Assembly: GCA_963693365.1 (NCBI GenBank)
Contig: CAVNZM010000010.1
Span: 1,178,001 to 1,242,000 of the forward strand
Reading direction: 5' to 3'
Length of the DNA stretch: 64,000 nucleotides
Source of the DNA: Amoebidium appalachense
Lineage: Eukaryota; Protista; Ichthyosporea
Under the pieces are notes generated by a model. It did not search any database, was not told the origin of the DNA, and saw only the letters and a list, made by a program, of their open reading frames with translations. Both the position numbers and the translations under genes were made by a program. Of the stretch, positions 52,847-55,800 are shown piece by piece (positions within the stretch are counted from its first letter, which is position 1; each line of letters begins with the position of its first letter).

Positions 52847-55800
52847 TTACGCAGATGAATTTGTTGGATCTGAAGGAATTTCGTTCCCTTCGATGGGCGC
52901 TGAGGTGTCTATCAACATACCGTGTTGCTGCCTGCGCCACAAGTCTGCGTAATGCCCATTTTGGGCAAGAAGCTGTTTAAAGACAAAGGGTTAGAGTGGC
53001 TCCTTTAACTAGGGAGTATGTAAGTTCCTTTAATGGTGGCAATTGTCATAACCATTTTAATGATTCAATAATAAAGAAGTTAAAATGATTCCAAAAACCT
53101 GTTTTGCTTTTTAAAACACCTATAGAAACAATCGAAATTCCTTTTGAATCCACAACTCTCCCTTCATATTTTCTTACAGTTGATGGTTCAGGTAATGCTC
53201 GTCCTACAATTGTTTACAAGAATAATTATCATAGCAGAATACGTGAAGCAATATGACACCGTGGGCTTCAGGTTCAAGGTGCACATGTTCGCAATTGGTC
53301 AAAAACAAAAACAAAAAAGGAGAGAAGAGGTCATTGGATGGCGGAGTGAAATGACTTGAATAGCGAACAAGTGTACAAACGGGGTATCAGGGGAAAAAAG
53401 AGAGGCGGCATGGGGGGGGGGGGGGGGGGGGGGGGGGGGGGGGGGGGCAAATTGCATGTGGAAGAATAACACCCGTAACACGGAGGGGGAGGGGGGACAA
53501 ACACAGTAGATATCACAAACTTTACACAAATGCGCATCATTACCAGAGCCCCCCCCCCCCCCCCCCCCCCCCCCAGTGGTGAAGAGAGAGAGAGGGGGCC
53601 CGGGGGGGGGGGGGGGGGTTTGAATGCGTCAAAAAGTACGAAGTACACAAGAACAAACGGATAACACGATGCAGAATGCAAGCCATACATAAAGAGTATG
53701 CATAATAAGCAGAGCCCATCCTCAGGGGGGGCCCACGTCATCCACAGTACCCGAGTTTCGACCTATTCCCCTCGTTAACGAAACCCAACTCAGATACTGT
53801 TTCACTTGAACATGAGTAGGTCACCCGTCTTGATCAGAGACGAGCAGGGTTGCTTATGGGGGGGGGGGGGGGGGGGGGAGGAAGGGAGGGAGAGAGGGGG
53901 GGGGAGACAGAGAGAGATGGGGGAGGGGGAGGGAGGGAGGGAGGCAGAGAGCGGACGGAGAAAGAGAGAGAGAGATGGGGGAGGAGGAGGGGGAACAGAG
54001 AGATGGGGGCAGGAGGGGGGGGGGAGATAGAGAGATAGAGAGGGGGAGAAAGGGGGGGGGGGGGGGGAGGCAGAGAGAGAGAGAGAGAGAGAGAGAGAGA
54101 GGGAAGTGGTACCGTGGTGGTGGAGGTATTGTGTGTGTGTGTGTGTGTGTGTGTGTGTGTGTGTGTGTGTGTGTGTGTGTGTGTGTGTGTGTGTGTGCAT
54201 GCTTTTTTATTTTTATTTTTATTTTTTTTCTTTTCTTTTTTTTTATTTTTTTTTTTTTGGGGGGGGGGGGGGGGGGAGGGGGGAGGGAGGGAGGGAGGGG
54301 TGTGTAACACAACACACCTCATAGTGGTTGCCCTGTTCGACCACCACCCCCCGATCAAGCACGATTATGAGATCGGCATCGGTGACCGTAGATAGTCGAT
54401 GGGCGATGAAGATCATGGTCCGATTGTGTGCGATCTTGCTCAGGGCCTTTTGGATGTTCATCTCCGTGCGGGAATCAAGAGCACTGGTGGCTTCATCGCA
54501 TAGAAGAATCCTGTTTTTAATTTTTAGTTTTATTTTTTATATATTATTTTTGGTGTGGAAGGGAGGGGGAAGGCAGGAGTTAAAGAACGCGCGGGGGGGG
54601 GGGGGGGGGGGGGGGGGGGAAGTGGTCAGGGGGCATTGGGGGGGAAGGGGGTGGGGGGGAGCGTGGGGTTAGAATGTGCTACAGAGTACGAACCACAATA
54701 TCAGACAGACAACACCATGGAGGCTCTGCAACTGAGAGCACACACACAAAGCATCTGCGTGGGGGGGGGGGGGGGGGGGGGGGGGGGGGGTAAACGTATG
54801 AGTTTGAGGGTATCTGAGTTTGCATATGCGTGATGTGTCTGTGCGTGCACGCTCATAGACAAGAATCGCACAAGCAAAAGTGACACACACAAGCACACGC
54901 ACACGCACACACACGCGCGCGCACACATACACAAACACACACACACACACACACACACACACACACACACACACACACACACACACACACACACACACAC
55001 ACACACACACACACACACACACACACCCACCCACCCACCCACCCACCCACCCACCCACCCACCCACCTTGGGTTCTTGAGTATCGCTCTGGCAATTGCCA
55101 CTCTCTGCTTTTCTCCTCCCGAAAGCTTCAACCCTCTTTCCCCAACCTGAGGAATTTCGCGTAAATATCCCCCCCCCCCCCCCCCCCCCCCACACACACA
55201 CACCCACCCACGCACCCACCCCGTTCCACAATATCGAGAGAAATATAGAGAGAGAAAAGGGATACCAATCTGTGCGTGTGTGCGTGTGTATGTCTGTGTG
55301 TGTGTGTGTGTGTGTGTGTGTGTGTGTGTGTGTGTGTGTGTGTGTGTGTGTGGTTGTGTGTGTGTCTCTTTGTGCGTGTTTGTGTGTTGCAAGCCAGGGA
55401 GGGGGAGAAGGGCGCCGGGGGAGGGAGGGAGGGGGGGGGGGGGGAAGGGTGGAGACAGACAGACAATCAGAATTAGGAAGAGGGAGGTATGGAAAAAAAG
55501 GTGCGTTAAAGAAGACTATGTAGTGATGACGATTACATTAAGTTCGAACGTGGAGAGCGGGGCAGGGGGGAGAGAGGGGGTGTGGGGGTGGAAGGGGTAG
55601 AAGAAAGGAATATTGGGAGGGAGGGGGGGGGGGAAGGGGAGGAGGGGGGGGGGGGGGGGGGGTAGGTTGATTTGTTGGCACACACATCGGGAGAAATAGA
55701 GAAGAGAGTGATGGTGTCTGCATCAGAAGCTAGGAGTATCAATGGCAAACCAGAACACAAGGAAGGGGATCTGCAAAAAAAAGAAAAAAAAAGAAGAAAA

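Follow-up and report, generated by a model that had tools for sequence, protein, structure and literature searches.

The closest described systems are the permuted hammerhead ribozymes and the hammerheads of retroelements. In a published scheme the hammerhead has six permutations (PMC10085705), a number that follows from treating the CUGANGA block as indivisible; in the parts of that work considered here, Eckert et al. 2023 assume at most 2 nt between CUGANGA and the stem II strand. One permutation, type SGC, has the order cleavage site, GAAA, CUGANGA, has been shown to cleave and needs a fourth helix tying stems I and II; its examples there come from metatranscriptomes, none of them from a known organism. 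Type CSG is represented in the same parts by only two sequences, both metagenomic. Type I hammerheads of canonical Penelope-like elements and of non-LTR retrozymes have their core near the end of the unit and are proposed to cut tandem transcripts (PMC4209133; 10.64898/2026.07.22.740005, as far as consulted). Among Penelope-like elements, the sections of Craig et al. 2021 used here describe no canonical hammerhead in Naiads and flag 'HHR_core' and 'HHR_half_core' (PMC8557442); they describe Chlamys elements as 5'-truncated, arranged in head-to-tail copies and inserted at (C)n targets.

Here we describe an intronic repeat from a 64,000-nucleotide stretch of DNA (the window). The explanation that we consider probable, drawn from the sequence, is that the repeat is the 3' end of a Penelope-like element and encodes a split-core, kink-turn-braced hammerhead that would cut between 53787 and 53786.

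Copies of the repeat and their probable carrier

The main copy (53619-53857, minus strand), which defines family A, was the blastn reference for the other copies in the window. Two near-identical family A copies were recovered at 28411-28621 (99.5% identity) and 45470-45658 (98.5%), together with one diverged copy, family B, that matches at 78% over 170 nt; three near-identical copies and one diverged copy are what the sequence-only reading had described. The diverged copy had been placed at 43525-43797; its existence stands and its extent does not, as it reaches 43823, 26 nt more at the 5' side. All four occupy the minus strand, which is the sense strand of their host genes. They lie between exons of an ATM1/ABCB7-like gene (the main copy, in its last intron), a SAM-domain gene (two copies) and an SH2 gene (28411-28621), which agrees with the earlier placement in introns of three genes; the GT/AG context around the copies fits this predicted intron placement. 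They have a common 3' end at a poly-C tract and ragged 5' ends. The terminal motif occurs six times in the window, always on the minus strand, and all six end in a C run. The copies and fragments are as follows.

53619-53857, minus strand: family A copy, 5'-truncated, with the whole putative ribozyme module, flanked by poly-C tracts; last intron of the ATM1/ABCB7-like gene
28411-28621, minus strand: family A copy in an SH2 gene intron, without the P0 leader or the greater part of hairpin e
45470-45658, minus strand: family A copy without the stem II 5' strand, C11.1 changed to U
43525-43823, minus strand: family B copy with the complete module, its predicted site lying after 43725
45301-45410, minus strand: short diverged 3'-end fragment, beginning at a degenerate CUGANGA block
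54665-54760, minus strand: short diverged 3'-end fragment

Repeat sequence was present in 20 of the 24 public runs listed (16 may be source DNA), with 6,631 and 8,874 contigs mapping to it in run X3 and 7,520 in run X12. Beyond the part common to both families, family A continues upstream for at least 113 nt (run X9, record 26), and family B reaches at least 80 nt 5' of its window copy. Since both families continue upstream in public-run contigs, every window copy is 5'-truncated. Single contigs join a truncated copy head-to-tail to the next 3' end through short G-rich spacers. The fixed 3' end, the ragged 5' ends and these joints bear out the earlier suggestion that the fold is carried by a mobile element. 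One X3 contig represents a third family, in which the core and kink-turn letters are kept and stem III differs. A single third-family contig in X3, with a joint at 53722-53819, lacks everything between the stem II strands, as if reverse transcription had jumped the folded helix.

The window holds other repeats. The stretch 43910-43990 (minus strand), just upstream of the family B copy, may be a strongly diverged 3'-end fragment, although the strict terminal motif is absent. There are 120 C tracts of at least 10 on both strands, 15 of them with a preceding AA like the element ends; related elements may have left very short insertions at some of these tracts. A satellite at 4852-7802 comprises 16 copies of a 182-nt unit, 93% alike; the unit has a stretch loosely like the 3' terminal motif before a C run, possibly by chance, and no CUGANGA by eye. 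Two non-LTR retrotransposon copies with reverse transcriptase matches (12780-16400, minus strand; 33270-35925, plus strand) are 94-98% alike at the 3' end, and the plus copy ends in poly-A. Positions 1-1780 hold the 3' part of an LTR retrotransposon, with, by eye, an integrase and a chromodomain-like region, and a minisatellite with a period of ~25 nt lies at 59173-59841 inside an ATM1-like intron.

A Penelope-like carrier is very probable, and the repeat is likely the 5'-truncated 3' end of a retroelement of the Naiad/Chlamys type. Both Chlamys consensus ends that were compared finish in AACCCCC, like the window copies (PMC8557442, sampled records). The carrier is inferred, because no Penelope-like protein was found among the 23 ORFs scanned of the 258 in the window; the public-run contigs contained no full pLTR unit, and the head-to-tail joints are seen in single contigs only. 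It is very improbable that the repeat belongs to a LINE or SINE with no relation to Penelope-like elements, as a structured 3' UTR that acquired its hammerhead independently. Such an origin would accord with the non-LTR reverse transcriptase family in the window and with the lack of a Penelope-like ORF tied to the repeat; against it, that family ends in poly-A and has no end in common with the repeat, which itself is without a poly-A tail, and the fold and the base of hairpin e match Naiad ends by eye among the records compared.

Predicted fold of the module and the hammerhead core

The elements of the predicted fold in the main copy, all on the minus strand, are listed in 5' to 3' order of the RNA.

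53847-53857, minus strand: closing helix P0, 5' strands, 7 bp at 53851-53857 and 3 bp at 53847-53849; duplex -11.1 kcal/mol
53823-53845, minus strand: hairpin e, 8 bp, beginning GCUC and ending GGGU directly before G10.1
53817-53822, minus strand: stem II 5' strand (G10.1 = 53822), the crossing strand of the sequence-only reading; U-A to C-G at 10.5/11.5
53807-53816, minus strand: outer helix b, 5' strand, also the kink-turn C-stem; equivalent of the type-SGC 'I' helix
53801-53806, minus strand: kink-turn bulged strand (3-nt bulge, G1b, A2b, 3b); 3b-3n is A-G in family A and U-U in family B
53788-53800, minus strand: stem III strand ending in U16.1 (53788)
53786-53787, minus strand: predicted cleavage site, after U17 (53787) of the GUU triplet, by analogy with hammerheads
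53784-53786, minus strand: stem I 5' strand; the stem has 3 bp here and 4 bp in family B, where a G-C pair is replaced by A-U
53770-53783, minus strand: linker hairpin d between stems I and II, containing a perfect 10-nt palindrome in both families
53760-53765, minus strand: stem II 3' strand (C11.1 = 53760)
53756-53759, minus strand: core GAAA (G12, A13, A14, A15.1)
53744-53756, minus strand: stem III partner strand
53732-53743, minus strand: kink-turn non-bulged strand (53741-53743) and helix b 3' strand
53726-53728, minus strand: stem I 3' strand
53719-53725, minus strand: core CUGAGGA (C3 to A9)
53705-53718, minus strand: strand after A9, U and then the P0 3' strands
53619-53704, minus strand: 3' tail with the common terminal motif, then poly-C

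Each stem named in the sequence-only reading pairs as written on the minus strand, with corrections of detail. The inner hairpin keeps its stem and loses its 2-nt loop, which is impossible; it has a 3-5 bp stem and a 4-nt loop. The long stem pairs as proposed; read as part of a hammerhead it has 13 bp, since the U at its end becomes the unpaired cleavage nucleotide. The closing helix ATAAGCA/TGCTTAT is present in the ATM1 copy and is not restricted to it, a 7-bp helix also occurring in the diverged family; the 43525-43823 copy has two private changes in this helix (43639 and 43642), where ~100% of the depth carries the pairing letter. The first position of P0 is a U-U mismatch, which counts against the fold proposed here. 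The crossing pair does form a pseudoknot, and its helix corresponds to stem II of a hammerhead; stem I, absent from the earlier account, is a second pseudoknot. The kink-turn motif and the 5' truncation had likewise gone unnoticed there.

Stem II begins with a G-C pair adjoining GAAA (53759-53756); the final A of this block is paired with U 53788 at the end of stem III. U 53787 completes the GUU, and the next three bases pair with the three preceding CUGAGGA (53725-53719), giving stem I. All four module copies have CUGANGA directly 3' of the stem I strand and a GUU (NUH) site between stems III and I. Three of the four also have GAAA between stems II and III with the A15.1-U16.1 and G10.1-C11.1 pairs; in the 45470-45658 copy, position 11.1 is U and the upstream stem II strand is absent. 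Families A and B are identical in 78 of the 109 columns from 10.1 to A9 and keep all 14 core positions, the chance of which is ~0.01 under uniform identity. Every conserved hammerhead position stands in register with the stems, and we are highly confident that the fold is a hammerhead.

A descriptor of the hammerhead core register without the contiguous-core rule, composed after the copies had been seen, matched only the copies ending at 53857, 43823 and 28621 in the 64-kb window (three of the four copies). In 20,000 dinucleotide shuffles per family it gave 0 and 2 matches, and 30 block-shuffled versions of the window yielded no locus; a fixed pattern gave three matches against none in 100 shuffles. 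Among the window copies, 96.8% of 125 pair cells pair, with three two-sided changes, against 27-48% in slid-partner controls; in this alignment the third stem I pair is out of register for family B, and stem I adds a fourth two-sided change, G-C to A-U. The covariation evidence from the window alone is weak, because 16 of 500 shuffles reach the same score, which is not significant by the caution attached to the test itself; the window copies amount to two sequence types. In run X3 the two sides of the fifth stem II pair (10.5/11.5) are variant at like depth, 3.4% and 3.7%. Contrary variants break a pair of hairpin e at 43766 (16% of depth in run X12) and change U4 in a few contigs (0.2% in run X3). 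Folding energy is unremarkable for the whole copies (z of -0.60 and -0.22); for the core, z is -0.28 in the main copy and -2.4 in the diverged copy, but -2.3 on the opposite strand of the latter.

The order of the blocks is site, GAAA, CUGANGA, which departs from the circular three-way order of hammerhead types I-III; these types are ruled out by the strand order and because no copy has CUGANGA and then GAAA within 60 nt. The Rfam check proposed earlier gave no gathering-score match in the window (Rfam 15), and within 43400-54000 no model aligned to the module even with the E threshold raised to 10. The statement that the element matches no known ribozyme thus holds for Rfam models and fails otherwise, as a complete hammerhead core is present. 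Of the functions that had been suggested, the ribozyme gains support, its stems framing that core in a non-circular order at the level of sequence, and an IRES-like function gains none.

Other identities were rejected. A SECIS element has an RUGA/GA core with an unpaired AAR 11-13 nt along the helix. A SECIS core-like motif is present here, but the helix is longer, there is no AAR and Rfam gives no match. Folds of C/D or H/ACA snoRNA, HDV-like, twister, glmS and riboswitch type were rejected by eye on their consensus features, and Rfam agrees. In a metagenome scan with an 18-nt conserved motif, all 25 loci were without the rest of the module and were read as chance; viral contigs gave no match to a strict pattern and 32 loci with a looser one, of which a single locus, not convincing, passed a minimal pairing filter.

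Stem II strand and the putative kink-turn

The best 5' strand for stem II lies ~100 nt upstream and is directly followed by helix b. By calculated energy it gives a more stable stem than the strand downstream of A9 does in family A (-6.7 against -2.2 kcal/mol) and in family B (-7.1 against -5.4 kcal/mol). A weak contiguous stem II does exist near A9; the stronger, covarying one is upstream. Because the stem II 5' strand lies upstream, the CUGANGA block is split: two helices, P0 and hairpin e, are predicted to open it between A9 and G10.1, and our inference is that they bridge this gap as a four-way junction. The outer 'I'-type helix that ties the flanks of stems I and II is provided by helix b, only with the upstream stem II.

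The main rival, which we regard as quite unlikely, is an ordinary type-SGC hammerhead with a switch. Its active stem II would come from the strand after CUGAGGA, with a 1-2 nt insertion, and the upstream strand would act as an inhibitor, holding the ribozyme inactive as long as the RNA is full-length. All four copies can indeed be read as contiguous SGC with 2 nt inserted (stem II of 4 bp in family A and 6 bp in family B), Penelope hammerheads typically have a U after A9 (PMC4209133, in the sections consulted), and the downstream strand is invariant, as expected of a strand with two partners. Yet the contiguous stem has 2-3 G-U pairs and is the weaker, with a mismatch at the fifth pair in family A; the 'I' helix link, which SGC ribozymes require (PMC10085705, same parts), is lost in this reading; and by eye it cannot form in the coral Naiads or in one further Naiad among those compared below. 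The split-core reading keeps that link.

Between helix b and stem III there is, in both families, a 3-nt bulge together with tandem G-A and A-G pairs. Kink-turns are recognized by a 3-nt bulge, tandem G-A/A-G pairs and flanking stems. The helix b/stem III joint fits this consensus; the next position, 3b-3n, is A-G in family A and U-U in family B. The kink-turn is predicted to brace the outer helix against stem III, and in a model of the fold it would supply the bend that the ring needs. Separately, the 10-nt palindromes of the linker hairpin (53772-53781 and 43708-43717) differ in sequence between the families and are possible dimer contacts, as is a 6-nt palindrome in the loop of hairpin e.

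Proposed cleavage and relation to known hammerheads

In the mechanism that we propose, the RNA would fold as two junctions joined by stems I and II and the kinked b/III helix, with P0 and hairpin e stacked on each other beside the core in a four-way junction. It would self-cleave after GUU at 53787/53786 (43725 in family B); by analogy with hammerheads, in vitro self-cleavage of the module after 53787 or 43725 is likely. The cut would act as a nick, because ~38 bp (P0, II, b and III) still hold both products. Two such cuts in a head-to-tail transcript would release an RNA of unit length, and its ends could refold into the same ribozyme and be re-joined; cutting and re-joining of tandem transcripts has been proposed for Penelope hammerheads and retrozymes (PMC4209133; 10.64898/2026.07.22.740005, same sections). 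A Penelope-like reverse transcriptase and endonuclease would then reverse-transcribe the RNA into (C)n tracts, starting at the fixed 3' end and usually stopping early.

No 5' end among the four in the window, and no start among the 14 listed head-to-tail joints, falls at the predicted site, and three copies span the site; contigs cannot show RNA ends. Given these two observations, the templates would have been uncut or re-joined. They also accord with an unlikely alternative, in which the module derives from a hammerhead and is no longer catalytic, the fold persisting as a scaffold that binds protein or docks the template for the retroelement enzyme. The opened core and the short stem I (only 3-4 bp, itself a point against the explanation we favour) point the same way, and Penelope hammerheads often cleave poorly in vitro (PMC4209133, same sections). 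A scaffold alone would not, however, need U16.1-H17 in register, and the catalytic positions are all kept while the surrounding stems change, also across animal Naiads by eye in the records compared.

Naiad 3' regions were compared by eye for 19 of the 54 in the supplement of PMC8557442 (13 whole, six selected by a term containing GAAAC), and several record names were assigned by file order. Seven of the 19 have the split-core layout with unrelated stem sequences: two from octopus, three near-identical ones from coral, one from a ctenophore and one further record. The two Chlamys 3' ends compared in full (PMC8557442) have no such motif. In the coral and ctenophore elements the hairpin e sequence GCUC...GGGU stands directly before G10.1 and P0 right after A9, as here. 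In the coral elements and the one further record stem II must be upstream, because the strand after A9 cannot pair with C11.1. The octopus elements appear by eye to have a kink-turn motif too. Six other 3' regions, five from nematodes and the record before Naiad_Lpol, are of type CSG, with the same cyclic order and an intact core; these six hammerheads look complete and lie near the 3' ends (by eye; PMC8557442 File S5). Two ostracod Naiads have S-G-C order with a stem II not settled by eye, one squid record is ambiguous, and three other records have nothing of the kind.

Searches of the open literature (subscription papers lay outside the scope) returned no description of a hammerhead split at A9/G10.1 and, again among open papers, no link between the Naiad half cores and permuted hammerheads. 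If the module is active, the two helices inserted at A9/G10.1 would break the indivisible-block rule and offer engineers a new attachment point on the core, and its layout would explain why Naiad and Chlamys elements seemed to be without hammerheads. If the assignment is true, it would place non-circular hammerheads, so far mostly environmental and without known role, in a defined genomic parasite. A wider proposal, which we hold doubtful, is that an active four-piece hammerhead is the missing ribozyme of Naiad and Chlamys elements from animals to their unicellular relatives, and that in the present lineage a kink-turn gates its folding, a host L7Ae-family protein thereby licensing a nick-and-reseal reaction by which tandem transcripts become circular templates.

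Compared with the parts of PMC8557442 considered, the repeat resembles Chlamys Penelope-like elements in being 5'-truncated, in its head-to-tail copies and in its (C)n targets, and Naiads in having no canonical hammerhead. It differs from Naiad and Chlamys elements in that neither an ORF nor a pLTR unit was recovered, and in its probable host, a unicellular relative of animals, a group outside those tables of the paper that were considered. The predicted kink-turn has the opposite polarity to that of the octopus Naiads and stands where the coral Naiads have a plain bulge. Like the type I hammerheads of Penelope elements and retrozymes, the core lies near the end of a Penelope-like unit; those ribozymes are circularly ordered and often have a minimal stem III that needs dimers, whereas here stem III has 13 bp and there are two pseudoknots. 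The nearest relative in layout is type SGC (HRIMA-1 and variants; PMC10085705, in the parts considered), with which the module shares the block order, all core nucleotides, the link from the stem I strand to the stem II strand and an outer helix joining the far ends of stems I and II. The descriptors of Eckert et al. would miss it, because they need CUGAUGA(U)G beside stem II, a stem I of at least 4 bp and a linker of at most 8 nt. In contrast to type SGC, the predicted fold here has the stem II 5' strand and an outer-helix strand upstream of the site block, a split block C with two helices between A9 and G10.1, a kink-turn joining the outer helix to stem III, a hairpin as linker and G at N7.
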